IMG/VR virus record: IMGVR_UViG_3300048032_000927
Location: 1 to 64,000 of that record
Source of the DNA: a virus
Strand: one strand, 5' to 3'
Length of the DNA stretch: 64,000 nt
In this document: one piece after another, positions 7,988-26,597 of the stretch
Position numbering within the stretch: position 1 is the first letter of the stretch
How the letters are laid out: each line of letters starts with the position of its first letter
Translations under genes and position numbers: made by a program
Notes under the pieces: model-generated
The model's input: the letters and a program-made list of their open reading frames with translations, nothing else
Told to the model about the DNA's origin: nothing
Databases searched by the model: none

Positions 7988-9565
7988 ATGCCTGTACATA
8001 GAAATAGAATCATTTATCAATCAGAAGCTCTTTTCGTGAGCCCTGACTCAACTGGAGCGCACTTCACTGGCGCCAAACTTAGCGCAGATAATCTGGCGGC
8101 TCATGGTACAATCGGAACGGAAGTATTAAGTAATATTGGACCTGGGCCATTTGGTTTAGTAACGCCGCCATTAGGTAGTGGCCAGGCTTTTGGTACTAAC
8201 GCTGGTCAAACCGCTCCCGCTAAAAATCAAAAAGGAAACATTTTAGGATGGCAGGCATCTGACACACTAGCTAACTGGCCAGACTGGAATCCAGAAGGAT
8301 CTGACGCAAGTTTTGCTCAAGGTCACGGAAGCATCATCAAGCAGCTAAAGCGTATTCAAACCGCTAACTATGGATTTACCGTCAATAGGCAGGATGTTAA
8401 TCAGTTTGGACACCTCGGGAGACTTGACTCCTTGATTATCGAAGCTCCAACAGTTAATCTTGATTTTAGCTACTACTTGCTCGACGGATACAATGAGCGT
8501 ATGCTTGAGTTTGTAACTAATGGTCAAATCAATTCATTGAGTGGCGCACTTGCTCCAGAACTTTATCAAGCAGGTAACAACTTCTTTATCTTGACCGTTC
8601 CTGAGGCTAGAGACGCAGTTAATGGAGATGTTGCACTAGAAAACGAAAGTCGTGAGAATCAAAAAAGTGTTATCGCTCTTGGAAATGGTTTCATTACTGA
8701 TTACACGGTTGATATTTCTGTAGGAGCAATTCCAACAGCAAGTGTTACTGTCGAAGGCATGAATATTCGCAGTGATTTTGGTACAACCGGAAGCGATAAT
8801 CCTGGCATTGATATCAATGACGGAAGTCTTATTAGTAAAGCTTGGAAAGTTGATGCAGACGGAGTAAGATCTGCTTACGATGGAGGATGCACAGGTCTTT
8901 ATTCCTTGCCTGCCTCTAACAGTGGTTATACTGGTTGTGATGACATTTCTGCGCTTCGTCCAGGAGATGTTGTTGTGAATATGAGTAACAGCGCCATGAT
9001 ATCAAAGCAAACTTCCGGAACCAATGCGTCCACCAATACATTGCAAGGAAGCGCTCATATTCAGTCTGTTTCTATTAACATCCCAATGGCTCGTACTACA
9101 TTACAGCGTTTAGGAAATACTTTTGGATTCTCTAAGGCTGTTGACGTTCCTGTTAATGTATCAATGACCGTTAGTGCTGTACTCGCAGACCTTAAGGAAA
9201 GCAACCTTATCGATTTAATGTGTACATGCGAAGGTGTCGAAGTTGGTGTTGATTTATATCAACCAGAATGTGGAGCATGTGAACTAAAGCAAGGTGACCC
9301 AGCTATGAGATATACCTTGAAAGGCGCACGTCTTGAATCTGAAAACTTCACAAGCACTATTGGCGACAACAAGACAGTAGAAGTTACATTTACCGCTCAA
9401 GTTGGCGGACCAGATGATCCTACAAATGGATTATTCATCTCAGGAGCTGAAGCCTCACAAGCTGATGCGGTTGGAATGCCACCAGCATGGACCGGGCTTC
9501 CAGGAGCAATGGGTAAAGAATTGCCTTCTGATCCAGTTAGCGGCTTCCTTGGGTATCGCGCATAA
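7988..9565 (+). CDS. Major tail tube protein
   Basis: 525 aa, Gly/Ser/Thr-rich, with strong SD (TAGGAG) and biased codon usage like the capsid gene. Tube-like strands (RIQTANYGFTVNRQDVNQFG; YTLKGARLESENFTSTIGDNKTVEVTF), followed by a hairpin. Confidence 0.7.
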   Translation: MPVHRNRIIYQSEALFVSPDSTGAHFTGAKLSADNLAAHGTIGTEVLSNIGPGPFGLVTPPLGSGQAFGTNAGQTAPAKNQKGNILGWQASDTLANWPDWNPEGSDASFAQGHGSIIKQLKRIQTANYGFTVNRQDVNQFGHLGRLDSLIIEAPTVNLDFSYYLLDGYNERMLEFVTNGQINSLSGALAPELYQAGNNFFILTVPEARDAVNGDVALENESRENQKSVIALGNGFITDYTVDISVGAIPTASVTVEGMNIRSDFGTTGSDNPGIDINDGSLISKAWKVDADGVRSAYDGGCTGLYSLPASNSGYTGCDDISALRPGDVVVNMSNSAMISKQTSGTNASTNTLQGSAHIQSVSINIPMARTTLQRLGNTFGFSKAVDVPVNVSMTVSAVLADLKESNLIDLMCTCEGVEVGVDLYQPECGACELKQGDPAMRYTLKGARLESENFTSTIGDNKTVEVTFTAQVGGPDDPTNGLFISGAEASQADAVGMPPAWTGLPGAMGKELPSDPVSGFLGYRA

Positions 9566-9587
9566 TAAATTAGAAATAATTTAATTT

Positions 9588-9619
9588 AATACACCACAGT
9601 CGCAAGGCTGTGGTGTATT
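9588..9619 (+). terminator. Stem-loop (GCAA tetraloop) after the major tail gene, weak terminator or processing site
   Basis: AATACACCACAGTC-GCAA-GGCTGTGGTGTATT: 14-bp stem with one G:U pair and only a short U tract. Confidence 0.65.
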
Positions 9620-9626
9620 TATATAT

Positions 9627-11048
9627 ATGGGAAAGTCGCGAAATGTAATACAGTATAACTCAGTTGGACTATTCCTTACTGATGCCCCTGCCGCAAACCC
9701 AGAGACTGACAAAGTAAAATTTTTTAATCGTGTACAAAGTGTTGGCATATCCATCGATGTACAGAGACAAAACATAAAACATATTGGCGGCGAAGATTTT
9801 TTAGCCCGAAAGATAGTTCAAGCGCCTGATATTAATATAAATGTCGGATATTTATTGACCGACGGATACGAAGAGAATCTACTCGGATTAAATGTGGCAC
9901 CAGCACCTATCGTAGTGTCACCAAAGTACGGCGTAATAGATAATGATGAAATTCACGAGGGTACAATCTATAAAGATCTCAAAGAAGACAAGAACATGTT
10001 TATGGTTGTTGGTGATGAAGGATTTGATCTAACAGGATACGCAAAACGCCCGCAAGGATATTCTGGAACAGATGCAATTGGTATAGGTAATTGTTTTCTA
10101 ACTAATTATAATGTTAGTGCAAGCGTTGGTGGATTCGCTGAAGCATCAGTGCAAATGGTAGCATCAGATATTAATTATGCATGTATGGGTTCTGGTGAGG
10201 GTGGGTATTCATGGACCCAGCCAATCGAAGAGATATTTGGTTTATTAAGGCAGGTAGACGCATTCGATGAAGACTTTGTGTTGTTGGAGGATGGATCAAT
10301 TATTGGTCTTGGAGAAGAGTTTGGGGAAGTTAATTATGGCGGAGCCATCACTCCTTCTTTAGATTTAGCTAATAAAGGTGCCGTGATCACTGGAACTGGA
10401 TTCGTATTCAATCCAGACATGTACAATTCTGCCACTACAGCGATACATCAAGGGGGTATTAATGTTACGGTTAGAAACCTAGATATGGGCGGGCCTATAT
10501 TAAATGGAATAAATCAAGGAACATGCAACAAGGGAACCGCCAATATACAAAGCTTTGATATATCTGTTCCTTTTGATAGAGAGGATCTTCGCGGATTCGA
10601 GTCTAATAATGTATATGGCCGCAAATTAAAAAAACCGCAAATTGGAACAATAAGTTTTTCATTGTTAGCTAACGCATTTACAAGCGGAAGATTTCAGGAA
10701 TTGTTGTGCAATGATAATGACTATGAGATAGCCATTGATTTAACTAGCCAATGCAAGCTAACTTGTAGATCTAGCGACCCAAAAGACAAGTACATGAAAT
10801 TCACTGTAAATAACGCTAGATTTCAAGGTTACAGTTTTAATGAACAAGTTGGATCTTTCGCTACGGTTGATTGTTCTTTTTCTTTTGGAATGAGTTCTAA
10901 TAATGGACTCTTTGTTAGCGGGTGCTTTGAGAACGAAAGGCACAAAAAATGTGTACCATCTACTATGATGGCACCAAGAAACTTAGAGGTTGATAACGTT
11001 ACCCCGCTAGAAGATCCTATTCGTAACCTACAAATTACAGGCGCATGA
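9627..11048 (+). CDS. Minor tail-tube-like protein (paralogue of 7988-9565)
   Basis: Colinear similarity to the major tube: RNVIQYNSVGLF/RNRIIYQSEALF, YLLTDGYEE/YYLLDGYNE, IGIGNCFLTNYNVSASVG/IALGNGFITDYTVDISVG, GTANIQS/GSAHIQS. Confidence 0.7.
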   Translation: MGKSRNVIQYNSVGLFLTDAPAANPETDKVKFFNRVQSVGISIDVQRQNIKHIGGEDFLARKIVQAPDININVGYLLTDGYEENLLGLNVAPAPIVVSPKYGVIDNDEIHEGTIYKDLKEDKNMFMVVGDEGFDLTGYAKRPQGYSGTDAIGIGNCFLTNYNVSASVGGFAEASVQMVASDINYACMGSGEGGYSWTQPIEEIFGLLRQVDAFDEDFVLLEDGSIIGLGEEFGEVNYGGAITPSLDLANKGAVITGTGFVFNPDMYNSATTAIHQGGINVTVRNLDMGGPILNGINQGTCNKGTANIQSFDISVPFDREDLRGFESNNVYGRKLKKPQIGTISFSLLANAFTSGRFQELLCNDNDYEIAIDLTSQCKLTCRSSDPKDKYMKFTVNNARFQGYSFNEQVGSFATVDCSFSFGMSSNNGLFVSGCFENERHKKCVPSTMMAPRNLEVDNVTPLEDPIRNLQITGA

Positions 11049-12019
11049 AAAAGAAAGCGAGATTATTGATTACTTGGGATCCACCCTTGCACCTTGAAAA
11101 CATTGATTCGATTGTGTTATTGAAAAAGAAATACGGAATTGATTGCGATGAAGTTTTGGAAAGTGGAGAATTATTGTTTGAAACAAAAAACATTTTAGAA
11201 GATAGCTATATTGACGAGTTTGATGATTTTGGGACTTTTAGATACGCGGCTTTTGCAAAAAATGCTTACGGTTATACTCCCTGCACCACCAACTATTACA
11301 CCATAGCTGCTTCGGTGCTTTGGTTTCAGTATTGCGGAGGAGACTTAGTACAGCTTTATGATTTGCAATATAGTTATCAGCCCGCACTTCAATTATGGGA
11401 AGAAATAAATGGGGATTATGTCTTAAGAGATGCTCCTTACGGATCTTCGGATGAATATGCAAAATATTTTGAATTGAATAATGATGGTGATTTGATACCT
11501 ACCGCTTTCCATAACGAAATAATCAACGACTTTGAAGTTGAGGGAAAAGACCAATACTCTTACGATTGCTCGCACATGGGTGTAGTATTAACGACTAATG
11601 CAATAAATGGAACAGCTTCTGGAGCAGGATCTTACGAATATAGAGAGATTGTTCAGCTTAACTGTTTGGCTGGCCCTCAGTACGACTTTAAAAAATGGAC
11701 AACTAATGCAGGAATAATAAGTGATAAATATTCTCAGATTACTACGATTGAGGTAACTGGAAGTGGGTATGCAACAGCAATATTTGAGCTAAAAAGAATG
11801 ACGATCCAGCTGATAGGCAATAATGTAACTCTTCAGGGAGCGGGTACATATGAACATGGTACCACTATAACAATTAGCGCTACTCCTGATTCGGGTTATC
11901 GTTTCGTCAGATGGATGGGCAATAATATACAGAACACCTTAAGTGCCACAACTACTTTATATGTAGATTATTTAGATGGAGATCAAACAATTGCAGCGAT
12001 TATTGAAAGTATCCCGTAA
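11045..12019 (+). CDS. Virion-associated protein with FN3-like N-terminus and two InlB-B-like repeats
   Basis: N-terminal LLITWDPP...FRYAAFAKNAYG. Repeats GTASGAGSYEY...YDFKKW and LQGAGTYEHGTTITISATPDSGYRFVRW. Confidence 0.6.
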   Translation: MKKKARLLITWDPPLHLENIDSIVLLKKKYGIDCDEVLESGELLFETKNILEDSYIDEFDDFGTFRYAAFAKNAYGYTPCTTNYYTIAASVLWFQYCGGDLVQLYDLQYSYQPALQLWEEINGDYVLRDAPYGSSDEYAKYFELNNDGDLIPTAFHNEIINDFEVEGKDQYSYDCSHMGVVLTTNAINGTASGAGSYEYREIVQLNCLAGPQYDFKKWTTNAGIISDKYSQITTIEVTGSGYATAIFELKRMTIQLIGNNVTLQGAGTYEHGTTITISATPDSGYRFVRWMGNNIQNTLSATTTLYVDYLDGDQTIAAIIESIP

Positions 12020-12082: not shown

Positions 12083-15000
12083 ATGGCAGGAATTAGGGCA
12101 GATGTTTCATTAAATGTAAACACAGCGAATGTTAAGCGTAGTCTTGACAAGGCTACTAATGAAATTAATAAAGTTGTCGGCAAGATAAGCGGCAAACCAG
12201 TAAGCTTTAATGTTAACGGAAAAAGCTTTACTCAGCCCCTGGGTAGGATTACAGCCTCCGCCAATGAGTTCACAAAATCGCTTGAGGCATCAAATGCTCG
12301 TGTTATCGCTTTCGGCGCTTCTGTTGGTATAATAAATGGAGTAAGTGATGCATTCAGGAATCTCGTACTCGAAACAATAAGGTTTGAAAAAGTACTAAGC
12401 GATATCAATGTAGTGCTAGGACTAAGCAACGAATCTATTCAGAGATTCGGTGAAGGCATCTTTGATGTCGCAATGAACACCGCTCAATCATTTAATGTGG
12501 CGGCTGATGCAGCCCTCGAGTTTTCTAGGCAAGGTCTAAGCACGGAAGAAGTGCTAAAAAGAACCAACGACGCATTAATACTTACCAGATTGACTAGTTT
12601 AAATGCAGCTGATGCGGTAGCGGGGCTTACGGCTGCCGTCAATGCGTTTGGGGACGCTGGATTGACCACAACCGATATTATTGATAAATTAGCTGCTGTA
12701 GACGTAAAATTTGCTGTTAGCTCCGAAGATTTGATTAATGGCTTACAAAGAGCTGGTGCTGTTGCCATAGATGCAGGAGTGGAGTTGGATAGCTTGGTTG
12801 GCTTAGTGGCCGCACTCCAACAAACAACGGCTCGTGGTGGTGCTGTTATTGGTAATAGTTTGAAGACCATATTTACAAGGATACAGCGGCCAGAATCGAT
12901 CCGGCAAATTGAGGATCTTGGAGTTGCTGTAAGAAACATCCAGGGCGAAGTTTTATCTGCAGATAAAATACTTTTGAATATGGCAAAGAGTTTCAATACT
13001 CTTACTCAAGCTCAACAATCTAATGTTGTGCAATTTTCCGCAGGTATATTTCAGGCTAACGTCTTTAGATCTATTCTTAGAGATTTAGCTAAAGAGCAAA
13101 GCTTGCATGCGCAAGCCACCGAAGTTTCCGCTAACGCATCCGGAGAGGCCGCTAAAAAGAATGAAATCCTGAATCAAACACTTGCAGCATTAGCATCTCA
13201 AGCTGGAACGGGAATACGAGAATTAGCAGGCATTATAGGCGAGCTTGCAGTAAAGCCTGAAATTGGAGGATTTTTAGAGTTTTTAGTTGGCCAAATTGAA
13301 GGCATCAAAAAGATGCTTGGAGGAGGAGAAGATGAAGGAAGCGCTTTCGCTAAAGGGTTAGTCCGGGGAATAGGGAATGTCTTAACTGGTCCTGCTGCGA
13401 TAGCTTTTGGAGCAGTGTTCATAAAGATGTTCCTGAATATAGCTAAGTTTGCCAGCACTTCACTAAAAGATGTTCTTGGTATTGTTAGCCAGAAAGATAG
13501 AATCAGGCAAATGGAGGAGTCAATCGTTCAAGCTTTATCAGCCAATAAAAACCTTCAGGAATCCTTAAATAATCTAGAGGGAGATAGGCTTGCTCAAGAG
13601 AAGTTCATTCTTGGAATTATTGAGGCACAAACAAGCGCCATGAGAGAGCAACAATTGCTGGCCAGTCGTTTAGCAAAACCTTTAATGAGAAAAGGCGTAA
13701 CCCCCGACTTGACAATAAAAGCTTCCGGGGGTTTAATACCTGAATCTGTAAAAAGCAAAGAAAAGCAAGGCGCAAGAAAGGGTGGTTATGCCCCAGGGTC
13801 AATAGACTCAATGAACATTCCGGGGCTTGGCCCAGTTGTTTATAATAAAGCGGAAACCGTTAAACAATTTCCTGGTATGAAGCAGCCTGCGATTATGCCT
13901 CCAAAACAAAGCAGGGCTGGAGGTGCTTACAAAAGCACTTTTAAAGAAAAACATGGCTTCGATCCTTACGCAAGCCATGGTTTTGTTCCTAATTTCGCGA
14001 TGAAAAGAGGGTCTACTCTCGTCATGGACAAAGCGAAGTTAAAAGTTTTTGGAACAGATGTAGATATAGGACGTGCGGTTAATAAAAAATATCAAGAAAT
14101 ACAAGAACATTTTCAAGCAAAAATTCCAATAAATATTGAAGCTGGACTGCAGCAGATAATAACCTCATCAACTAAAGATAAAAAACAGCCAACAGGCAGA
14201 GAGTCTTTATTCGAAAGTTTCAGCGCCTTATCGGGAGCAGGAATAAAATCAATAGAGCGACCTTTTGATATACGAAACATTGGTGCCGCTAAGTCAAGAG
14301 GCTCAAAACCAAAAGGACTCTCTCCATCTGAATTTAGTGAAAAGAAGGTAATGGGTCTACTCAAGAGAGAGCAAAGCGTTGATAAGGTAGATAAAAAAGA
14401 AGGTTATAGGCTAACGCATGATCCACAAACAAATAAAGGTCTTCCTGATTATCCTGTAGATATCATCTCATACGGCGAAAATTACCCAACCCACGAAGTT
14501 AAGAGTGGTAGTTTCAATCCAGCTAATCTCATATTCAAAAGCTTACGAATGGCTTCTGATCGAGAGTTGCCAAACTGGATGCAACAAAATAAAATAAGCG
14601 GCGGCAAAAAACTACAAGAAAGAAAACTTAAAAAAGCTGAAACCTTATCAAAGAGATTAGATTTATACGATCCCAAGCAAAAGAAAAGTGCCAAAGAAGA
14701 AGGGTTTGAATTTAGTCAAGATTTTGCGGATCAATGGGGATTAAGCCAGGGGTTTGTTCCTAATTTCAAAAAAGATTGGCGACAATTATACTCAAATACG
14801 TTAACAGGATACAAGCAGGGAAAAATAAAATCTCGAGAAGATCTTATGGGTTATTTAGGGGTTAGCCTAAGCGGCCTATCTCAACTAGTTAGCGCTTCAA
14901 GTAATTCAAATAATAAAGCGATCAGGGAACAGTTGTCCGAAGTTCAACTTGATAAATTAAGGGAGATTAATGCATCTGTTTCTGATAAGAACCAGAAAGA

Positions 15001-18000
15001 CTGGAGGAGCCTGTACTCGACTACAATATCAGCCCGAAATCAGGGAAAGATAAATTCCAGAGAAGAACTAGCGAAATCCCTTGGTGTAAGTGCAGTCGGT
15101 CTATCTCAACTAGTTAGCGCTTCAAGTAATTCAAATAATAAAGCGATCAGGGAACAGTTGTCCGAAGTTCAACTTGATAAATTAAGGGAGATAAGTAATT
15201 CTCTCTTAACTGATAAATCAGGAACATTATCCCAAACAAGATTAAAAGGTGATTTATTTGAGAAAGCTATTTCAATTCTTTCTGGGCAACCTTTCAAAAA
15301 AGGCGCAGACGCATTAGACTTTTCAAGAGCACGGGCAAGACCTGTATTAATGGATTCAAAAATTCGCGAACAAATAGATTTAGGCCAAGATGTTCGATAT
15401 GGCGATGCAGAGTCAGGAAGCGGGCACAAAGTCCATATCATGAGGGATAAAGTTATTCGCGAGTTGGAAGAAGGCGGCCAATTATATAATCTCATCCAAA
15501 AAAATGGCGATATTAATTTACCAGGAAAAACGTTCACAGATATTGTTGCTAACGGATCCGACGCTAAACCAAAAGAATCATCTACCATAAAATTAGGTGA
15601 GTTATTAAATACTGGTCGAACAACAGCTGGAACAAAAAATGCGATAGAAAAATCTTTAACAAAAAAATACAAAGGTAAAATAACTCCTGCGCAAAGACAA
15701 AAAGAATACCAAAGAAATGTTAAGTTCGATTATTATGTTGATGATGTTAATTTGGAAAACCTAAAGGTTGACAAAAGAACCAAGCTAGGAAAAGAATTGG
15801 GAGATATAGATAAACAATTTCTTGCAGTATCCGCTCAGACACAGAGTGACGGATTGGTTCCAAATTTCGCATCTCTTAGATCACCTATTAAATTTGATGT
15901 TGGCGATGAAAAAAGCTACGGAAAGTCCTATGTTGCAAGAACAGCGAAATCGGGGAAACTTTTTCTACTAGAGCAAGGCCACAAACATTTCTCTGAATAT
16001 ATGGAGTCTCAGGGTAAACCTACGCCAAAAATGACTAGAGGTGTTATTGGGGGCAGAGAAGGATATTGGGTGAACCAGCACGAAGATGATATACTAGAAT
16101 GGAGTAAAAAGCCAAACATAGAATACATTCGAAAAGAAAAAGAGGTTAAAGAGCAAAGAGAGCAGGAATCAAAAGACTATATGCAGAAGCTTAAGTATGG
16201 ATCTTTTGAGCCTATAAAAAATGCAATGCCATTAAATTTCGGGGGAGATTCGGTCAGATACCAAAGAACATCTGGTTTCGGAAAAGAGCTTATAAATAAA
16301 CTTGGGCCAGACTATAAATACATTTCAGTAAACACTAGAAAAGTAGAAGATTACGCTAAAGCTAATAATATAACCAAGCAACTTCGTTCTGGTTCTACGG
16401 TACCCAATTCCAAATCAGCCTTGCTTAAAATGGTTGACTTACCTAAGTCTAAAATTCAAGAGCTAGATTTTGTTAGGCCAAGAAAAAGAACTGAAGACGA
16501 AAAAAAAGAGGAACTAAGAGAAATTAGTCCAACAAGCCCTATCAAATGGGATGTTCGTCAAAATCCGGGAACAAAAAAGAAAGATTACTCTCTTAAGGGT
16601 AGCGACGACACCTTTAGGCACTTTAGTAATTTCTTAGAAAGAAAAGGTGTTCCCAAGAGAAGTATTCAAAATATTCAAAACGCTATACAGCAGAAAAGAG
16701 AAACTATAAAAGGCCTCGAAGAAGGAGCAAGAAAAAAAAGTCAATCCAGATCAGATAACACTGCATTTCATGAAGCAGCACTAGCGTCTGAAAATATAGA
16801 AAAAAACTTTAGTATACCAACTGATAAATTATACATTAAAAACTTATCTAATTTAATCAAAGAATTTAATAGTACAGTTTATACTGGTTTTAGTGATGGA
16901 TATGTTCCTGATTATGGTGCTGTAGAAATGAATAAAGGATATGTGCCTAATTTTATTGGTTTTAATGTACCGAAGAAGTCGCATCAATTAATTGAAACAT
17001 TTAATCAAATAACTGAAAAGAATAAACTTATTCCTACCGTTGATTCTTTGATGGAGCAAGGCGTGGATCGAGAGACTGCAATTCAGCAAACAAAAGACGA
17101 TCAATTTGGACAAAAGAAATCGATGTTTAAGATTTTGAACACGATGAAGTCCGAAGGTGTTAAGCAGCTATTTTTTGGTCAAGGCGGTAAGATATTTCCT
17201 CATCAATCTGCTGGCACTATACCATTTACAATCGAGAAGATTAAGGATGTAATTAATAACACTGGATACAAGACTGATTTCAAAGCGGATGGATTTGTGC
17301 CCAACTATGCAGTTACTTTATCAGATGATAATTATTATAGCCAGAAAAACGTACAACATGGTATAACTCAACTTTATAAAAAGAGTGGTGGACGACAAAA
17401 ATTAGCCCCGAAAGAATTAGAGTTTGCGTCTGAAAGATATATATCGGCAGTTCAAGACAGTGGAAAAACTTATCCTGGCGGAAACTTTAACGTCGGTGGT
17501 AAGAAGTTCAACTTTAATGAAGTCAGTATGTCATTAATGAAGCATGGTCAGTTTTATCAACCCAAAGAAGGTGAAGCTGTAGATTTATCGGAAGGGTTTG
17601 CTGGAGGCTATGTTCCTAATTTTGCCGACTCTCAAAAGATCCGAAATGGAGCTATTTACCACAGCAAAACAAACAACAAAGCTGTTAGAGTAAAAAGAGC
17701 AGATCAAGCAGAGCGTATTGCATACATTAAGCATCACACTCAGGATCACATGTTTGACCCCGAAGTTCCGTTTTCTGATTTAACGCCTGCCACTAAAAAA
17801 CAAGTTCAGGAATATCTTGGTAGGTCACCAACTAAAGCTAAGGGTTTCGTTCCTAATTTTGCCGACACTACTCTTTATAGAGGTCAGGGCCGCCCAACTT
17901 TGGACACGCCAGACATACTGAGTAATCTTCCGAGTTTTAGTGGCGCTGAAACGCCAGAAGATGTTGTCGGTATTATTCAAAATTTTGTTAAATCTCATGT

Positions 18001-21000
18001 CAGCGGCGAATTGTCGGGACAAAGAAATAAACCTAATCCCGCCAAAAAAGCATCTGGTGCAGTTTCTTTTTCTACAAATGATACAATAGCTAGAGAATTT
18101 TCCGGACTAGGCACAATTAGAAGAAAAGCCACAAATCCAGACGGTAAAGTCTTTGAAAAGAAGGTTCCTCAGAAAAATATATTCAATAAGCGAAAATTAC
18201 TTAAAATTTTAAGTAGAGGCGCCGACCTCGAGAATAATGTTTATCCGAAGGTACAGGAATTTAAGCAGGCAATTTCATCAGGGGCGATACAAAACTGGGC
18301 CCAGGAAAACGGCGGAATTTTCTTAAACGTTTCAGGCGCATATAATGACAAAGAAGCTTACGGAAAAATGGGCAAGATGGAATATGGAAGATTTGAGCAT
18401 AAATTCTTGGGCAAAAGAATGCCTTCAATTGTACCTCCGAAAGAAATTGGTTTTAATAAAAATAAAACATTTGAAATCACCCCAAGAGAAGAAGAGGTTA
18501 TGCAGGTATTTGATGATGGCCTTGTTCCTAACTTCGCAGACCCTCAAAAGATTCGAAATGGCGCCATATATAATAGTAAAACCAATAACAAAGCCGTAAG
18601 AGTTGTTCGGGCAAATCAAGCAGAAAGAATAGCGTATATCAAGCATCATTCTCAGGATCACATGTTTGACCCCGAAGTTCCGTTTTCCGATCTAACGCCC
18701 GCGACAAAGAAACAAGTTCAGGAATATTTAGGCAAGAAACCTAAGGCTAAAGCAAAAGGCTTTGTTCCTAATTATGCATTGACAGGAAAAGAATATGCTA
18801 AGTTTTCAGTTAGTTTGTCTGATTTTGTAAGAAATAATTCTATTACGCCGCCGATAAAATCTCTAAGTAGCCGTGAAATATTTAAAATTCCCCGCAGAAA
18901 TGCAGAGGTTGCAGAACAAACTATTCAAAATATCAGGCAATTTATTTCATCTAATGAATTTGGGGATCTTGACGAAGATATCAGAAGACAGGTCAAGAAA
19001 GATTATAATAGAATTGCACCGAGAGGATTATCAAACCCATTTAGACCATTCGCCAAATATTCTCAAAAAGAATTTAGCGGAAGCATGGATGTAGGGCGCC
19101 CAACATTAAGAAGGGCTGTTGCTAAGGGATTTGTTCCTAATTTCGCAAGCCCGCTAAAAGAAGCTATAAAAAGAGAAAAAGCTGCAGGGGTTCCTGTTTC
19201 AAGTATTCGCGTAGAAAAAAGCCCGCAACTTAAAAGCTCCAAAAATCCAATGGGATTAGCGGTTACTAACACCAGGGATGAGCCTCTTGGTGTTGGCCAA
19301 GGGATTAGACGCGCAAGAAGTATGGGTATTGACCCTAAAAAACATGGGGCCTCAAAAGGGTTAGTGCCTAACTTTGCGGCTGGCATAAAGAATATACAAT
19401 TCAAAGAAGGCGTTCCAGATGCTGTAAAAAAAGCATACAATGAAAGCGCAAAGCATTTAAATAGTTTTAATAAAAACATCGAAACAGCTAGTGATGCATC
19501 CGGCAAAAGGGCTGAAGCAGATAGTAACGCTAGTAATAAAACCGATGATTTTTCAAGCGGAGGCTTGATGAAGCTTTTTGTTTTTCAGTCATTACTGAGT
19601 ACGGCTAATGGGTTCTTGCAGGAATTTGCAGAGAGTGGCGGTGAAACGGCTAAAACATTTGCTCAAATTGGTCAAGCTGGATCTAATTTAATTTCAACTT
19701 TACTGACTACGAAGGAGGTCGGCAACCAATTGATGGAAATGGCTAACATCAAGCCTTCTCAATCTGTGGGGCTAGGTGGGCTAATCCGAGGGGGTGGAGC
19801 TAGGCGTGGGGCAACTAAAGAAATAGCAGGAGGCCTTAAAGCAGCCATAGATTTCAAGGGGGTAAAAAACGCAACTGGAGCAATTTCTAGTTTTGGAAAA
19901 GGATTGTCAATGGCAGGCAAAGGTTTACTGAGATTCACACCAATAGTTGGACAATTACTTCTTTTGGGTACCGGATTAAACGAGGTAATGAAAATGATTA
20001 CGGGTAAGGGTTTGTTTGATTTACTGAAAAGTGACGCAGATAAAGCTGCTGATAAATTAAAAGAATTGGCTGAGGCTGCAGATAAGACAGAAAACGCTCT
20101 TAATGGAGCAAATAAACTACAGAGCACTCAAGAGAAAATCACAGAATTAAAAATTTTAGGTGACTCAAGAAGCCTCAAGCAAGAAAAAGAACTCTGGTCT
20201 TTAAAAACACAAGAAATAAAAAACAGAAATGAGTTAAAGAAATCTATATCAGAAGTTGATACGTCGTATATTCAAAACGAAAGTTTAATACAAAAAATCA
20301 ATCAAGTCAAGGCAGGGGAAATAACAAAAACTGAAGACGTTATTAAGGTTTTAACAGAATACTCTTTCGCCCAACAAGGTCAGATGGGAATCCAAGCTAG
20401 TTCCGAAAGATTCTTTAAGAGTATAGAAGACGTAAAAAGAACTCAAAAAGAAAAGATTGTTACGCCAAAAATGCTTAGCGGAATTCAAGTTGGAGAAACG
20501 GTTGAAAATACAGGTAGAAATATTTTATCAGAAGAATTTAAAAATAAAATAAATGAATCCGCCGCAGATATCGCACAGTCAATTTTAATGCTTAGCCCTA
20601 AACAGCAAGAGTCTGCGAAAAAATCTCTAAAAGAAGGGGAAGTCGGAAAAATTAGAGGGCTGGAAGGATTTGATGAATTAGGTAAAGTAGAGAAAAAATT
20701 TATATCTAGAAAAATATTAGAGTTTACAAAGAAAAAAGGCGCAGAAGGAGAAAAAAATGATGAGGAAGCTAAAGCAGAGGCTGGAGCAAGAGATGAACTG
20801 ATCAAAAGACTATTCTTAATTAAGCAAGGCAGGCAACAAGAAGCTTTAAATCTAAAATTAAGCAACAAGCGGAATGAATTATACCGCAGCCAAAACGCTT
20901 TTCTTCATGGTATACTCTCCGAGTATGAAGGCATTAACGTTGCCGCTAAAATTGAAGCCGATGCAGCCAGAAAAACCGCAAAAATAAGATCTGATTATAA

Positions 21001-24000
21001 CGAAAAACTGTTAGGCGTTAATCAAAAATTAATTCAAGGCACAGAAGGGATACTTGAAGGCGTGATTGGCGAAGGAGGCGCAAGCGCAAGTAGAGTCTTT
21101 GGTGCGGCTGGTGACCCTAATTCTAGCCCCGTACAATTCACTGAAAAGAGCGGTAAAGATTTAGGGCTAAATCAGGAGAAAGTTAAATTAGCTAATAAAA
21201 TTCTACAAGAATCCTCAAAGCAGGCAAGTGCTGCCTCTCAATCAAGGAAATTTTTCGAGGAATTAAATAAAGCAAAAGATGAAGAGTTATACATTGCTAC
21301 GGCTAAGTTGTTTTTTGATCAAGAAAACTTGCAAATCAGTCAAAAGGAGAAAAACAAACTTCAAGAGCTTATTAATACTCGAGATAAGACGCGAGCAATA
21401 CTTGAGCAAGACAACGAAATAGCTTTAGAAAATGTAAATCAAGAAAGAACAAGAAGTTTAATTTCAAAGAAAACAACAGAGGGTGCAATTGCATTGCAAG
21501 AAATTCTAAGTCAAGGAATACCTTATGCTCAAACAGCTATAACTGCAATGGAAGGTAATGCTGCCACGCTCAAGGTTTTAAATAATTTCAGAGGCGCTGA
21601 AATAGAAACAATACTGCAAAGTGCAGCATTACAAGCTGAAGCCACACAATTGCAAAAAGAAAAAAATAGAAATGACCTTATAGCTGTTACTAAGTCTGCC
21701 GCGCAGGCTAAAGCTCAAGCCGAAGTATTTTCCAAAACAGAACAATATGCTCAAATTATTCAAAAAAGACTTGAGCAGGAGATATCTCAATCCGAGATAG
21801 CTGCAAGAGATGCTCAATTAAAAAATGAATTCTATAATATTGAAAGTAATAGGCTTGCTTTAGTTAAAAGTCAATTACAATCTGAAATAGATAATTTAAA
21901 TACTGATAACTTAATTAAGCAATCTAGATTGGAGTTGTTAACTCAGTATGGAAAAATTAATGAATTGGTGGCTGGGCAGATTCAACAAAGCAGATTGCAA
22001 GCGACTACTGATTTAGCTACATCTATTGAAACGGCGCAACAAACAGGAACACCTGAGTCAATGGTTGATGTAGCCGAAAAGATGTCTGCCCTTAATAGAG
22101 AGATGAACACGGGCAGTAGAGCTATGGACGCTCTTAGAGAAAGGCTCGCAGAGGCGCAAGTCAATGCCGCGAACCTCGGGGCAGATTTAGTAAACATTGG
22201 ATTCGATCAAGCAAAGAGTGGATTAAAGCAATTATTTAAAGATATTGGAAGTGGTGCAAAGAGCGCAAGTGAGGCGTGGGAAAGCTTCGGACTGAATATA
22301 GCAGACAGCCTTCTCGATAGAATCATGGAGCATAATATAGACAAAATGATGTCTAATCTATCAGTTGCTTTTACTGGGCAGGATTTACTGGCAGACGCAA
22401 ATCAGAGGCTTGCTGCTACCATACCAACACTTAAGACATCAAATGATACGCTCAACACAACAACTGGAGCATTAAACACAAGCATGGGAACCTTGAATAC
22501 ATCTGTTCAAGGATTAACCACAGCGATAGGAAGCATCAACTTAAATCCTGGTCAGCCTACAGTCGATGTAACTATTCCATCAACTCCAGCTCAAGGTCCA
22601 GCCGCATCCGCCCCGGTAGAAAAGTTTTTGGGAGGCAAAATACAAGCGTTCAATAAAGGAGGCTTTGTTAAAGGTGAACCGGGGATTGACAGGGTTCCAG
22701 CTATGCTGACAGCAGGCGAGTATGTTTTAAACAAAGAACAAGTAAACGAAGTTCAAAAACAAGGGCCATCAACGACTGTATCGAAACCAGATCAGTTTTT
22801 CATGGAAAGCCCGAAGCAAATTTCGAAAAACATTGCCCCGAAAAAGACATTCGAAGATAATATCACAGGTAAGCTCAAACTATTCAAGGGTGGCGTAGTC
22901 CAAATGTTTCAGGATGGCGGTTTAGCTAATAAAAAAATAGACAAGGGAGTTTTTGATGTAGAGAAAAGAATTATTGATAAAAAGCAGGTTCAAGAAATAC
23001 AAAATAAAGAGGTTTTAAATGTCAAGCAAAGCCCAGTACAAGAACTATCCATTAACACTGCAAAGATATCAAATATGGTTTCACCTGAAAAAGCTTTAAA
23101 GGGCAGTAAGGAACTCGGGGATATTAAAAAATTTTACGGCGGGAAAATACAAAAATTTGAAGAAGGAGGAATCGCTAAAAGGGTTAAAGCTGGAGCCAAA
23201 GGAGCTGCACAATTTGCAGTAATGACTGGGGTTAGTAGTGTTCTATCAAAAAAGTTAAATAAAAAGCAAGATAATCCACCACCAAAATTTGATATGCGTA
23301 AGCTTGAGAACTTGGATTTAGGTTCTGATGTTAATATCAAAAGAGGCGACCCAAGATTAAGTGCTAGATTTATTGCGGAAGATCCAGTGATGCAGGAGTA
23401 CAGGGATCATTTGCTTGAACTAGCTACTTATAGGGCTCAAAAAACCAACGAAAAATTTAGAGAAAAACAAGGTACTCTTGCTTCTGTTATGGGAGCGGTC
23501 ATGAGTTTTGCTGTCTCACAATTAGTTTCCGCCGCCGCTAAACCATTGCAAAAAAGCATACAAAAAGGTAAAAACTTTATGGGTAAAACCATGGGTCAGC
23601 ATAAAGATGCCTACAAGAATGCAATGAGTATACCTGGCGGTAAAGACTTAAATTACAGCCAAGTTAGTAAATCAATAAAATCAGGAAAGCCTATCGATAT
23701 TGGTGGAAAAGAATATACCTATCAAAATGGATCATGGCTTAATCCAGTAAAGAAACAAGGCGGAGGCTCGATACCAGCAATGCTTACAGCAGGGGAAGGC
23801 TTCGTCCCGGCTCCTATTGCAAGAAGGATTGGCTACGGTAATTTAAATAAAATGAACCAAACGGGATCCCTTCCTATAATCAATGGACCAGCAGGCATTG
23901 ATAAGGTTGGACCAGTTGGATTAAATGAAGGAGATTTTATAATCAAAAAATCATCAACGGATAAACTACTAAGAGAGAATCCGAATATGATGAAATTCGC

Positions 24001-24379
24001 ATTACAAAACCCAGAAGGTTTCAAGAAGGGAGAAAGAGGATACTATGAAGGTGGGGTAGTAGGTACAGCGACACGCGCTGCGCCTGTTGCATCAAAAACA
24101 TACAAACCTCAATCTGCGCCAGAGCAAAGAAACCGCATAAGTTCATTGATTGAAGAAGTAGATCAAACTAAAGCTCAAGAAAGCGCACAATCCACAAGTA
24201 ATTCAGTAACTAATAATATCAATGTTAATGTAAGCATTGATAAATCTGGCAATGAGTCAGTATCAACAGAACAAACGGGATCTAGCCTGGAGCAGGAAAA
24301 AGATCTAAGCATGAAGATCAAGGCAAAAGTTCTGGAAGTTATCAGGGATGAAAAGAGAATTGGCGGAGAGCTTAGTTAA
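12083..24379 (+). CDS. Tail tape measure protein (4098 aa) with central modular cargo region
   Basis: N-terminal TP901-type tape-measure core (AADAALEFSRQG, IIDKLAAVD, TARGGAVIGNSLKTIFTRI) and long coiled coils. C-terminal FxxGG and PAMLTAGE motifs are typical of tape measures. Located between the tube and tail-tip genes. Confidence 0.9.
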   Translation: MAGIRADVSLNVNTANVKRSLDKATNEINKVVGKISGKPVSFNVNGKSFTQPLGRITASANEFTKSLEASNARVIAFGASVGIINGVSDAFRNLVLETIRFEKVLSDINVVLGLSNESIQRFGEGIFDVAMNTAQSFNVAADAALEFSRQGLSTEEVLKRTNDALILTRLTSLNAADAVAGLTAAVNAFGDAGLTTTDIIDKLAAVDVKFAVSSEDLINGLQRAGAVAIDAGVELDSLVGLVAALQQTTARGGAVIGNSLKTIFTRIQRPESIRQIEDLGVAVRNIQGEVLSADKILLNMAKSFNTLTQAQQSNVVQFSAGIFQANVFRSILRDLAKEQSLHAQATEVSANASGEAAKKNEILNQTLAALASQAGTGIRELAGIIGELAVKPEIGGFLEFLVGQIEGIKKMLGGGEDEGSAFAKGLVRGIGNVLTGPAAIAFGAVFIKMFLNIAKFASTSLKDVLGIVSQKDRIRQMEESIVQALSANKNLQESLNNLEGDRLAQEKFILGIIEAQTSAMREQQLLASRLAKPLMRKGVTPDLTIKASGGLIPESVKSKEKQGARKGGYAPGSIDSMNIPGLGPVVYNKAETVKQFPGMKQPAIMPPKQSRAGGAYKSTFKEKHGFDPYASHGFVPNFAMKRGSTLVMDKAKLKVFGTDVDIGRAVNKKYQEIQEHFQAKIPINIEAGLQQIITSSTKDKKQPTGRESLFESFSALSGAGIKSIERPFDIRNIGAAKSRGSKPKGLSPSEFSEKKVMGLLKREQSVDKVDKKEGYRLTHDPQTNKGLPDYPVDIISYGENYPTHEVKSGSFNPANLIFKSLRMASDRELPNWMQQNKISGGKKLQERKLKKAETLSKRLDLYDPKQKKSAKEEGFEFSQDFADQWGLSQGFVPNFKKDWRQLYSNTLTGYKQGKIKSREDLMGYLGVSLSGLSQLVSASSNSNNKAIREQLSEVQLDKLREINASVSDKNQKDWRSLYSTTISARNQGKINSREELAKSLGVSAVGLSQLVSASSNSNNKAIREQLSEVQLDKLREISNSLLTDKSGTLSQTRLKGDLFEKAISILSGQPFKKGADALDFSRARARPVLMDSKIREQIDLGQDVRYGDAESGSGHKVHIMRDKVIRELEEGGQLYNLIQKNGDINLPGKTFTDIVANGSDAKPKESSTIKLGELLNTGRTTAGTKNAIEKSLTKKYKGKITPAQRQKEYQRNVKFDYYVDDVNLENLKVDKRTKLGKELGDIDKQFLAVSAQTQSDGLVPNFASLRSPIKFDVGDEKSYGKSYVARTAKSGKLFLLEQGHKHFSEYMESQGKPTPKMTRGVIGGREGYWVNQHEDDILEWSKKPNIEYIRKEKEVKEQREQESKDYMQKLKYGSFEPIKNAMPLNFGGDSVRYQRTSGFGKELINKLGPDYKYISVNTRKVEDYAKANNITKQLRSGSTVPNSKSALLKMVDLPKSKIQELDFVRPRKRTEDEKKEELREISPTSPIKWDVRQNPGTKKKDYSLKGSDDTFRHFSNFLERKGVPKRSIQNIQNAIQQKRETIKGLEEGARKKSQSRSDNTAFHEAALASENIEKNFSIPTDKLYIKNLSNLIKEFNSTVYTGFSDGYVPDYGAVEMNKGYVPNFIGFNVPKKSHQLIETFNQITEKNKLIPTVDSLMEQGVDRETAIQQTKDDQFGQKKSMFKILNTMKSEGVKQLFFGQGGKIFPHQSAGTIPFTIEKIKDVINNTGYKTDFKADGFVPNYAVTLSDDNYYSQKNVQHGITQLYKKSGGRQKLAPKELEFASERYISAVQDSGKTYPGGNFNVGGKKFNFNEVSMSLMKHGQFYQPKEGEAVDLSEGFAGGYVPNFADSQKIRNGAIYHSKTNNKAVRVKRADQAERIAYIKHHTQDHMFDPEVPFSDLTPATKKQVQEYLGRSPTKAKGFVPNFADTTLYRGQGRPTLDTPDILSNLPSFSGAETPEDVVGIIQNFVKSHVSGELSGQRNKPNPAKKASGAVSFSTNDTIAREFSGLGTIRRKATNPDGKVFEKKVPQKNIFNKRKLLKILSRGADLENNVYPKVQEFKQAISSGAIQNWAQENGGIFLNVSGAYNDKEAYGKMGKMEYGRFEHKFLGKRMPSIVPPKEIGFNKNKTFEITPREEEVMQVFDDGLVPNFADPQKIRNGAIYNSKTNNKAVRVVRANQAERIAYIKHHSQDHMFDPEVPFSDLTPATKKQVQEYLGKKPKAKAKGFVPNYALTGKEYAKFSVSLSDFVRNNSITPPIKSLSSREIFKIPRRNAEVAEQTIQNIRQFISSNEFGDLDEDIRRQVKKDYNRIAPRGLSNPFRPFAKYSQKEFSGSMDVGRPTLRRAVAKGFVPNFASPLKEAIKREKAAGVPVSSIRVEKSPQLKSSKNPMGLAVTNTRDEPLGVGQGIRRARSMGIDPKKHGASKGLVPNFAAGIKNIQFKEGVPDAVKKAYNESAKHLNSFNKNIETASDASGKRAEADSNASNKTDDFSSGGLMKLFVFQSLLSTANGFLQEFAESGGETAKTFAQIGQAGSNLISTLLTTKEVGNQLMEMANIKPSQSVGLGGLIRGGGARRGATKEIAGGLKAAIDFKGVKNATGAISSFGKGLSMAGKGLLRFTPIVGQLLLLGTGLNEVMKMITGKGLFDLLKSDADKAADKLKELAEAADKTENALNGANKLQSTQEKITELKILGDSRSLKQEKELWSLKTQEIKNRNELKKSISEVDTSYIQNESLIQKINQVKAGEITKTEDVIKVLTEYSFAQQGQMGIQASSERFFKSIEDVKRTQKEKIVTPKMLSGIQVGETVENTGRNILSEEFKNKINESAADIAQSILMLSPKQQESAKKSLKEGEVGKIRGLEGFDELGKVEKKFISRKILEFTKKKGAEGEKNDEEAKAEAGARDELIKRLFLIKQGRQQEALNLKLSNKRNELYRSQNAFLHGILSEYEGINVAAKIEADAARKTAKIRSDYNEKLLGVNQKLIQGTEGILEGVIGEGGASASRVFGAAGDPNSSPVQFTEKSGKDLGLNQEKVKLANKILQESSKQASAASQSRKFFEELNKAKDEELYIATAKLFFDQENLQISQKEKNKLQELINTRDKTRAILEQDNEIALENVNQERTRSLISKKTTEGAIALQEILSQGIPYAQTAITAMEGNAATLKVLNNFRGAEIETILQSAALQAEATQLQKEKNRNDLIAVTKSAAQAKAQAEVFSKTEQYAQIIQKRLEQEISQSEIAARDAQLKNEFYNIESNRLALVKSQLQSEIDNLNTDNLIKQSRLELLTQYGKINELVAGQIQQSRLQATTDLATSIETAQQTGTPESMVDVAEKMSALNREMNTGSRAMDALRERLAEAQVNAANLGADLVNIGFDQAKSGLKQLFKDIGSGAKSASEAWESFGLNIADSLLDRIMEHNIDKMMSNLSVAFTGQDLLADANQRLAATIPTLKTSNDTLNTTTGALNTSMGTLNTSVQGLTTAIGSINLNPGQPTVDVTIPSTPAQGPAASAPVEKFLGGKIQAFNKGGFVKGEPGIDRVPAMLTAGEYVLNKEQVNEVQKQGPSTTVSKPDQFFMESPKQISKNIAPKKTFEDNITGKLKLFKGGVVQMFQDGGLANKKIDKGVFDVEKRIIDKKQVQEIQNKEVLNVKQSPVQELSINTAKISNMVSPEKALKGSKELGDIKKFYGGKIQKFEEGGIAKRVKAGAKGAAQFAVMTGVSSVLSKKLNKKQDNPPPKFDMRKLENLDLGSDVNIKRGDPRLSARFIAEDPVMQEYRDHLLELATYRAQKTNEKFREKQGTLASVMGAVMSFAVSQLVSAAAKPLQKSIQKGKNFMGKTMGQHKDAYKNAMSIPGGKDLNYSQVSKSIKSGKPIDIGGKEYTYQNGSWLNPVKKQGGGSIPAMLTAGEGFVPAPIARRIGYGNLNKMNQTGSLPIINGPAGIDKVGPVGLNEGDFIIKKSSTDKLLRENPNMMKFALQNPEGFKKGERGYYEGGVVGTATRAAPVASKTYKPQSAPEQRNRISSLIEEVDQTKAQESAQSTSNSVTNNINVNVSIDKSGNESVSTEQTGSSLEQEKDLSMKIKAKVLEVIRDEKRIGGELS
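14876..15192 (+). repeat. Perfect 92-bp direct repeat (14876-14967 and 15101-15192) within a 225-bp tandem duplication
   Basis: CTATCTCAACTAGTTAGC...AAATTAAGGGAGAT occurs twice with identical sequence. It encodes the second half of a duplicated HTH-like unit. Confidence 0.95.
17624..18775 (+). repeat. Duplicated ~79-aa module (about 17624-17842 and 18536-18757)
   Basis: ADSQKIRNGAIYHSKTNNKAVRV...DPEVPFSDLTPATKKQVQEYLG versus ADPQKIRNGAIYNSKTNNKAVRV...DPEVPFSDLTPATKKQVQEYLG. Confidence 0.95.
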
Positions 24380-25392: not shown

Positions 25393-26597
25393 AGAAGCCT
25401 TTTTTTAGATATGAAGACGTGCCACTAATATTGGCTCGGGGGGATGAAAGAGCTGCTGCAATCTTTGCGAACAGCGCGAGTATATCTGTAGATCAATCAT
25501 TATCGGTGAAGAAAACTGTTGATGATTATAATATATCTTTCGCTTTGCAAACTGGGGATGTGTATTTTCCAGAGGCTCAAGAATCGGGATTCCTTATGGG
25601 GCCTGTTGATGGGCCGGCAATAAAAGCTCAAGAATCAATAGAGGTAATAAAAAGTGGCTCAAGAATATCATACCCAAATGGAGCTTCTTTGTATTTAACC
25701 GAAGATCTATTACCTGGAGATTATTATGTTAATGTTCGCTCTACCGGCGAAACTTTATTAAGGAAAGATGAAGACGTTCCATATGGAGAAGTTGAGGTTT
25801 TAAGAAATTATGCGGCAAATGATATAGCAAGAGGGACACTAAACATCAGTTACTACATGAACACGGGAAATCTAGAATCTTTTTCTGATGTAACTGGATT
25901 GATGGATTTGCAAAGCTATCCACATACTGATGAAGGAAAGATAACAGGCTCCTTGGGAGATTATATGTTTTATGACGCATATATTAAAGAAGTTAGCTTT
26001 TCGGCGCAACCTTTTCAGCCAATTCAAACAAATGTAACTCTTGACATATACGGGGCACTTGATGTAAAGGAGGGCCTTTCCGAAGAAATTATAGAGAATT
26101 ATGGATGTTATGGGTATATTCTTCCTCCACAAAAAAATATACCACATGCAATGAATACTAAAATAGTTGGGTCAGAATCTGCAGGGATGAAGTATCCACT
26201 TAGTTTTAGTTATAAAATAACTGCAGAACGAAAACCTGAGGTATATTTACCCATAAGTGGCAGATATGATACTGGAGGAGAAATTCCAGATAGAGTCACA
26301 AAAGAAGATATAGAGGTCGTTATAGAACTTGCAGGAGAGAGACTCGATCCGCATTTAAAACTTGACGGTCAAAGAGCTGATGTATCAATAAAATTATCAG
26401 ATTTAGGTTTTGATCCAGAATATACGGATAATAACGCTGGGTCAATGAAGGAATTTAAATTATTAAGAGATCCAAACGATAGGCAACCATACGCAACACC
26501 TTATCAAGCTTATGGTGTCATCGAATCAAATAAATTAACAATATCTGATCAAGGCTATCTACAGGGATCTGTGACAATAAGGCAATCTTATAGATAA
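25389..26597 (+). CDS. Tail protein, probably distant tube-fold paralogue
   Basis: 402 aa with ATGA coupling. GTLNISYY and FYDAYIKEVSFSAQPFQPIQTNVTL resemble tube strands. Confidence 0.45.
   Translation: MKKPFFRYEDVPLILARGDERAAAIFANSASISVDQSLSVKKTVDDYNISFALQTGDVYFPEAQESGFLMGPVDGPAIKAQESIEVIKSGSRISYPNGASLYLTEDLLPGDYYVNVRSTGETLLRKDEDVPYGEVEVLRNYAANDIARGTLNISYYMNTGNLESFSDVTGLMDLQSYPHTDEGKITGSLGDYMFYDAYIKEVSFSAQPFQPIQTNVTLDIYGALDVKEGLSEEIIENYGCYGYILPPQKNIPHAMNTKIVGSESAGMKYPLSFSYKITAERKPEVYLPISGRYDTGGEIPDRVTKEDIEVVIELAGERLDPHLKLDGQRADVSIKLSDLGFDPEYTDNNAGSMKEFKLLRDPNDRQPYATPYQAYGVIESNKLTISDQGYLQGSVTIRQSYR

Follow-up and report, generated by a model that had tools for sequence, protein, structure and literature searches.

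The tape measure protein (TMP) of an uncultured marine siphovirus carries a cassette bay: between its N-terminal core and its C-terminal ruler part lie ten modules, each preceded by the peptide G-[FLY]-[VI]-P-N-[FY]-(A), which are gained, lost, duplicated, replaced and reordered exactly at this motif; with them, the tail probably brings ready-made proteins, in changing sets, into the host. The DNA analysed, hereafter the window, comprises the first 64 kb of the 115-kb IMG/VR record IMGVR_UViG_3300048032_000927, which is estimated to be 82% complete. A single uninterrupted open reading frame (ORF) at 12083-24379 on the plus strand encodes 4,098 aa. PF10145 (PhageMin_Tail, TP901-1-type TMP) matched aa 121-316 with 84.8 bits against a Pfam cut-off of 33.2, PHROG TMP families matched the N-terminus down to an E value of 8e-48, and the genes 3' of the ORF encode PF05939 (lambda gpM-like) and PF05100 (lambda gpL-like) proteins, a position in the tail module upstream of the tip genes. 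These matches and the downstream genes identify the product as a TP901-type TMP of a siphovirus with a lambda-like tail tip, and bear out the tape-measure core that an earlier reading of the same DNA (the original prediction) had proposed for its N-terminus. The gene and its parts are listed below in window coordinates, with aa numbers of the TMP; s denotes the segment behind the motif copy of the same number.

12083-24379, stop included, + strand: TMP gene, 4,098 aa (single ORF, PF10145, PHROG TMP families, downstream gpM and gpL genes)
12083-13729, + strand: N-terminal TMP core, aa 1-549, conserved in the lineage (matched by 109 of 120 homologues)
13730-13978, + strand: small conserved module A, aa 550-632, its N-side fence decayed to GLIPES (comparison with relatives)
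13979-14749, + strand: motif 1 and s1, aa 633-889, putatively PD-(D/E)xK-like with E753, D793, E805 and K807 (conserved residues, model B)
14750-15850, + strand: motif 2 and s2, aa 890-1256, two tandem CI-type helix-turn-helix (HTH) units and a C-terminal part (PF07022, tandem repeat)
15851-16897, + strand: motif 3 and s3, aa 1257-1605, function not assigned (motif-bounded homologues in 14 proteins)
16898-16936, + strand: motif 4 (GYVPDY) and a 7-residue spacer, an 'empty slot' (motif scan)
16937-17290, + strand: motif 5 and s5, aa 1619-1736, function not assigned (motif scan, homologue comparison)
17291-17605, + strand: motif 6 and s6, aa 1737-1841, function not assigned (22 motif-bounded homologues)
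17606-17842, + strand: motif 7 and s7, aa 1842-1920, first copy of a duplicated 79-aa module (89% identical to s9)
17843-18517, + strand: motif 8 and s8, aa 1921-2145, putatively R-S-E ADP-ribosyltransferase-like with R1933, S1995/S1997/T1998 and E2136/E2138 (conserved residues)
18518-18757, + strand: motif 9 and s9, aa 2146-2225, second copy of the duplicated module (likeness to s7; low model confidence)
18758-19126, + strand: motif 10 and s10, aa 2226-2348, helical (model A; absent from the relative L006 as a whole-module indel)
19127-19357, + strand: motif 11 and the universal module s11, aa 2349-2425 (120 of 120 homologues)
19358-19378, + strand: motif 12 (GLVPNFA), end of the cassette bay (motif scan)
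19379-24376, + strand: C-terminal part, aa 2433-4098, with a GL..LF..QS stretch, a long region read as helical, and GGxIQxFxxGG and PAMLTAGE units (translation, alignment consensus)

A regex scan with G[FLY]VP[ND][FY] found exactly 12 copies in the TMP, at aa 633, 890, 1257, 1606, 1619, 1737, 1842, 1921, 2146, 2226, 2349 and 2426, and thereby reproduced the positions and segment lengths given in the original prediction. Left out of that count was module A (aa 550-632). Its N-terminal fence, GLIPES at aa 550-555 (window 13730-13747), is what is left of a motif copy: in relatives this module is bounded by an intact G-x-[IV]-P-N-F near aa 540-560 and by the next motif near 620-650. A search of all six frames found the motif nowhere else in the 115-kb genome, and within 80 related loci (1.2 Mb) 298 copies lay inside TMP ORFs and a single one outside, in a TMP fragment. 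This near-exclusive occurrence in TMPs excludes chance. Over 915 instances the consensus is (A)(S/A)xG[FLY][VI]PNF(A), in which Asn is 94% conserved and Gly and Pro are fixed by the search pattern itself. The spacing of the copies is irregular, from 8 to more than 600 aa, and includes 19 cases in 239 TMPs in which two motifs stand only 8-30 aa apart (empty slots, as at aa 1606/1619).

The exchange of modules is visible at several levels. BLASTP with each segment against 120 homologues showed that homology starts at offset 0 from the motif and stops 1-2 aa before the next copy, so that domain boundaries coincide with the motif as had been proposed. The same motif-to-motif blocks occupy very different positions in different proteins: s8 was found in 27 proteins, starting anywhere from aa 85 to 2300, and its family has 27 different upstream and 17 different downstream neighbours. 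Cutting 213 TMPs at the motif yielded 1,116 modules in 191 families, of which 87 have at least two members; within each family the lengths span a tight range. These 213 TMPs display 137 architectures, and 41 of the 286 recurrent family pairs occur in both orders. The expectation that orthologues would combine conserved flanks and motif with a variable number and identity of modules was thus strongly borne out.

Close relatives illustrate how such changes are confined. In P0003, whose segments are 71-99% identical to those of the window, a module in which Pfam recognises an SNase domain takes the place of s8 and s9, and s5 and s6 have an additional module between them. The nearest relative with available DNA sequence, L006, was used for a mosaic comparison. 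At the motif at aa 890 the identity of about 95% falls to 10-40%, at the motif at aa 1619 it climbs from about 55% to about 97%, and s10 appears as a clean whole-module indel; cassettes s5-s9 are 87-95% identical, compared with 24-52% in the C-terminal part. These jumps at motifs next to a diverged C-terminal part imply that cassette blocks move between otherwise diverged rulers.

Judged from sequence, the motif marks a large uncultured lineage of TP901-type TMPs. With aa 620-2450 as query, 120 metagenomic TMPs of 2,265-6,389 aa were retrieved, nearly all of them motif-bearing, and a query with s11 alone identified 193 IMG/VR contigs. A profile of the N-terminal core matched 24,680 cluster representatives at E<=0.001, and the motif was present in 133 of 136 newly listed ones; as five full-length TMP rows were included in this profile, its matches reflect the N-terminal core and give the size of the family. 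The basal members, about 2,000-2,500 aa long, carry four copies of the motif (near aa 542, 624, 890 and 955) and follow a plan made up of the core, the small module A, one variable module, s11 and the C-terminal part. TMP length correlates with motif number (r=0.65), the giants holding extra modules. One member of the family, P0233, is a 7,702-aa protein whose 10 motif copies extend to aa 7484; some giant TMPs have motif pairs about 90 aa apart near the C-terminus. The N-terminal core is 26-29% identical to TMPs of cultured phages.

A host assignment was attempted by a genome scan and rejected. All six matches (L096-L101) were metagenome-assembled genomes (MAGs) of unrelated taxa (Cellvibrionales, Halobacteriovorax, Flavobacteriaceae, Verrucomicrobiales and Puniceicoccaceae), and they are probably binning artefacts. 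The presence of this TMP family in MAGs of five unrelated bacterial groups calls for caution in host prediction from MAG labels.

The claim that the motif is conserved as a peptide while its codons vary holds for the lineage and less well for the gene in the window. In 86 TMPs, with 395 motif copies between them, the peptide stays constant although every synonymous codon occurs, at close to its background frequency, which indicates selection on the peptide. In the TMP of the window the core GTT-CCT-AAT occurs in 7 of the 12 copies, against 14.5% expected (binomial P ~5e-4), and motif copies are 65-92% identical over 25-31 nt. Such shared microhomology could help in-frame exchange of cassettes. 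The local excess of one codon triplet and the mosaic breakpoints at motifs lend support to the earlier suggestion that the motif may also be a recombination joint.

AlphaFold2 models were obtained for aa 1915-2435 (model A, four modules) and aa 625-1265 (model B). Confident domains were predicted for s1 (per-residue confidence, pLDDT, mostly above 90, model B), s8 (mostly 70-97) and s11 (75-91; both model A), while s10 came out as helical and s9 with low pLDDT in model A, and much of s2 was uncertain and much of it helical in model B. Each of the eight motif copies covered by the models falls in coil of low confidence between domains, with pLDDT below 50 for seven and partly so for one; this fits a signal in linkers and not a strand in the core of a domain. 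The outcome opposed to the original prediction, segments that are invariant and colinear and do not fold independently, was not what we found. The structural check that it had called for succeeded in so far as domains were modelled for s1, s8 and s11, whereas fold searches gave nothing usable.

By BLASTP the segments are mutually unrelated except for s7 (1842-1920) and s9 (2146-2225), which are 89% identical as proteins and 79% identical over 233 nt of DNA. The earlier statement that a single duplicated module breaks this rule is correct between segments but missed a tandem repeat within s2, of about 73 aa and 75% identity, whose unit is HTH-like. A 96-nt stretch is 99% identical between the s2 repeats (window 14872-14967 and 15097-15192), the remainder of the repeat having diverged; this suggests recent gene conversion or partial re-duplication. 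The isolated s2 segment matched PF07022, a CI-type HTH, with 22.6 bits, a small margin over the gathering threshold of 22, and the corresponding match in P0003 reached 36.5 bits. The predicted richness in Lys was confirmed: all cassette modules of at least 77 aa are basic (isoelectric point 8.1-10.8) and contain 7-14% Lys, and the 13-aa slot alone is acidic.

Two modules show residue patterns of known enzymes. In s1, the largest variable family with 107 proteins, E753, D793, E805 and K807 (E..D..ExK) are at least 90% conserved in 34 sequences. Model B predicts a helix at 124-141, strands at 170-171 and 180-182 and a helix at 189-197, which puts the conserved Glu on a helix, the Asp where a strand begins and the ExK on the strand that follows, an arrangement known from PD-(D/E)xK nucleases. 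This pattern partly supports s1 as a putative PD-(D/E)xK-like nuclease. In s8, the motifs L-Y-R(1933)-G, S1995-F-S1997-T1998 and E2136-E-E2138 are invariant in 8 sequences. Model A places a strand at 13-16 before R19, a strand at 80-83 followed by a helix at 86-92, and a strand at 224-228, and the secondary-structure context of R, S-x-S-T and E-x-E agrees with that of R-S-E ADP-ribosyltransferases (ARTs). The reading of s8 as a putative R-S-E ART-like enzyme is, likewise by residue pattern, partly supported. The Atlas leads for s8 were weak (NarE 0.85, DUF4765 0.88), Pfam gave no match to the segment, PHROG scans of s8 homologues were likewise negative, and a PDB profile search with the s8 alignment returned chance matches only. 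Word-based searches for stand-alone homologues of s8 yielded only two fragments, on contigs of less than 600 nt.

No Pfam or Atlas match was obtained for s3. The SNase domain PF00565 was not detected by Pfam in the TMP of the window; in the relatives P0003 (25.1 bits, aa 2191-2288) and P0051 (31.3 bits) it scored above the cut-off of 21. The description of the segments as effector-like is backed in part, by the HTH units of s2, the SNase of relatives and the patterns in s1 and s8; on the other hand, no fold confirmation was obtained and 20 other families lack Pfam matches. The module s11 is present in 120 of 120 homologues and carries the invariant core NPMGLAVTNTRDEP. This core, located at aa 2388-2401 (window 19244-19285) and reading N-P-M-G-L-A-V-T-N-T-R-D-E-P, persists even in a minimal form of s11 of 55 aa and is the most conserved piece of the cassette bay; it matched nothing in Pfam or PHROG.

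A TMP occupies the lumen of the tail and exits before the DNA does; from this we infer that the modules travel into the host, which they would enter as ready-made proteins. The set delivered here would consist of a PD-(D/E)xK-like nuclease, HTH DNA binders and an R-S-E ART-like enzyme, with an SNase in relatives, and these modules would act on host nucleic acids, transcription or defences. We tentatively favour the reading that the motif is a processing site that frees the modules. As a standard site it would be cleaved at the invariant Asn or beside it, while the tail matures or once the TMP has been ejected, whereupon each module could act by itself, and the short conserved coding core of the motif would double as the register for in-frame recombination of cassettes. 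This preference is based on the position and length of the motif, its near-invariant Asn, and precedents in phage T5 and the polyvalent proteins.

Several known systems resemble parts of this arrangement. T4 Alt, an ART of R-S-E type, travels in the phage head as a protein of its own and, once injected, reprograms the host. Like the putative enzyme in s8 it is ready-made and virion-borne, whereas s8 is part of the tail ruler and its ART assignment is made by residue pattern. YomI of Bacillus SPbeta and the TMPs of staphylococcal SPbeta-like phages share a PF10145-type core (26-29% identity) and enzymatic domains within the ruler; unlike the cassette TMP, they carry a few fixed peptidoglycan hydrolases for passage of the envelope, are motif-less and show no match to the cassette region. 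Another TMP with an embedded cell-wall hydrolase is that of mycobacteriophage TM4. Experimental proof that a TMP can deliver an enzyme comes from Thermus phage P23-45, whose gp96 is a 5,002-aa TMP fused to a virion RNA polymerase that transcribes phage genes within minutes of infection (Chaban et al. 2024, PMC10770324). Together with its homologues in P74-26 and G20c, gp96 is alike in being a giant TMP with a working enzyme in the tail; compared by description, it differs in having one fixed N-terminal enzyme and neither a fencing peptide nor an exchangeable array. In phage T5 the TMP pb2 occupies the lumen as a trimer and is expelled when the receptor is bound; a cut behind R1127 parts its muralytic enzyme domain from the ruler (Linares et al. 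2023, PMC10038345). Like lambda gpH during its maturation, pb2 is a lumen TMP cleaved in the course of tail morphogenesis, but the cut is single, frees a single C-terminal cell-wall enzyme, occurs at a site other than GxVPNF and is not accompanied by module shuffling.

In module content, a parallel is provided by the polyvalent proteins described by Iyer, Burroughs, Anand, de Souza and Aravind in 2017, giant strings of unrelated conflict domains (ARTs, nucleases, DNA binders) with a highly mosaic architecture, for which delivery with the DNA and processing into units were proposed (PMC5512222). The TMP, too, joins several unrelated conflict-type domains in one giant mosaic chain. Polyvalent proteins differ in being mostly head-packaged or delivered by conjugation and in relying on embedded metallopeptidase (MPTase) domains, none of which was detected in the TMP by Pfam; the paper has 0 mentions of tape measure proteins and no fencing heptapeptide (PMC5512222). 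Literature searches found nothing relevant on motif strings or on TMP cassette or effector arrays, in keeping with the earlier remark that no description of the arrangement was known. The cassette TMP extends the known enzyme-bearing TMPs and polyvalent proteins, and for a motif-fenced exchangeable array we found no published description.

A number of points weigh against delivery of modules freed by processing. Searches of the TMP, its neighbours and the 82%-complete genome revealed no protease, and Pfam, which remote homologues could escape, detected no peptidase family (MPTase or other) in the whole TMP or its segments; among prohead proteases, the record gave no match to S78, ClpP or S77, a result that for S77 is uninformative as its control also matched nothing. 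Cuts at the first and last motifs would separate the N-terminal core from the ruler part. P23-45 gp96 stays full-length in virions (PMC10770324), so cargo can be borne by a TMP that is not cut. Such deep conservation of a seven-residue site would also be expected of a docking motif. The tail lumen is about 4 nm wide, and three copies of folded 25-40 kDa modules do not fit in it side by side, so the modules would have to be staggered or incompletely folded there. Most modules belong to no recognisable family, including 20 further module families from relatives without a Pfam match, and fold searches with the multi-module models confirmed neither nuclease nor ART, helical parts filling the match lists. 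The cassette region matched no INPHARED phage by DNA or protein, and no cultured phage with the family was found.

Nearly as likely as a processing site, and thus quite possible, is an uncut docking or threading joint, in which the motif would bind a repeated partner (the inner wall of the tube, the tail assembly chaperone or a conserved TMP module). Each inserted module would then bring its own handle, the tube would polymerise past it and the chain would thread out, the modules staying tethered as in gp96. A hydrophobic, aromatic peptide with Gly and a Pro-Asn turn, placed in low-confidence coil, extremely conserved and confined to TMPs, suits such a role, and the intact gp96, the failure to find a protease and the existence of tandem motif pairs 8-30 aa apart point the same way. 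On the other hand, no partner was identified, the irregular spacing does not fit the repeat of the tube, and the near-invariant Asn suggests chemistry over mere packing. Asn-Phe and Asn-Ala sites self-cleave in the capsids of tetraviruses and nodaviruses. Somewhat unlikely is that the heptapeptide is an assembly-dependent self-cleavage site of this kind, at which cyclisation of the invariant Asn, with Phe/Tyr-Ala behind it, would cut the chain once the TMP is locked in the tube. If this were true, the tail would be a magazine of free exchangeable effectors fired before the DNA, and the same peptide would be a universal in-frame plug-in joint, so that a large group of marine phages would possess a natural, modular system of protein delivery.

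Purely structural and purely DNA-level roles suit the data less well than processing or docking. It is rather improbable that the modules are fillers, that is, spacers or envelope-spanning ruler or channel parts that set the tail length, span the periplasm or fit the host envelope, with the motif as a structural hinge and the enzyme-like patterns as relics or coincidences. The lack of a recognisable enzymatic family in most modules, the failure of fold searches to confirm any, the increase of TMP length with motif number and the helical nature of s10 and much of s2 agree with this explanation. It is opposed by the catalytic-type residues of s1 and s8, invariant across 50%-identical homologues, by the bona fide SNase domain above the Pfam cut-off in relatives, by the HTH units, and by fast swapping among otherwise 80-97% identical proteins, which is typical of conflict genes and not of rulers. 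Very improbable is a mere recombination scar, with the motif kept as coding microhomology for cassette exchange and no role of the peptide. The recurrent GTT-CCT-AAT, the likeness of the copies at the DNA level and the breakpoints at motifs would be expected from it; however, the free use of synonymous codons near background frequency under a fixed peptide contradicts it, and a DNA signal need not conserve Gly, Pro and Asn in frame.

The C-terminal part behind the last motif retains its conserved GL..LF..QS and other stretches in the alignment consensus, and its Pfam match to PF20155 (TMP_3) is weak. At about aa 3540-3910 (window ~22700-23800) it contains three GG-x-[IV]-Q-x-F-x-x-GG units and two [IV]-P-A-M-L-T-A-G-E units, the second of the latter being followed by GFVPAP. 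Since G-x-[IV]-P-A-M-L and G-F-V-P-N-F-A have G-x-[IV]-P-x-hydrophobic in common, the fence may derive from this C-terminal unit. Among the neighbouring genes, the one at window 26597-31807 encodes a 1,736-aa protein, far bigger than gpM, with the PF05939 gpM-like domain at aa 619-736 and weak VWA matches. The proteins encoded at window 3011-3778 and 11045-12019 end in InlB B-repeat or Flg_new_2 Ig-like domains (E 1e-12 and 4e-19), and the latter gene lies directly 5' of the TMP gene, in the place expected for the tail assembly chaperone. Candidate genes for the tail tube and the chaperone span window 7988-12019.

The usual view of TMPs is that they measure the tail and form a channel, and that any enzyme they bear is a fixed one for the cell wall or, in a single case that has been studied, a polymerase. 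In the very large uncultured lineage described here, the ruler serves as a standard rack in which proteins can be exchanged, and one conserved heptapeptide marks every slot. A physical question follows, namely how so narrow a tail tube can take up folded domains of 10-40 kDa and let them out again. Should the modules be delivered, their approximately 190 families, nearly all unannotated, would form a catalogue of candidate host-takeover and anti-defence proteins, for which the motif would be a simple search key and possibly an engineering joint, and tail-borne effectors would be a widespread, fast-evolving layer of the conflict between phages and their hosts.

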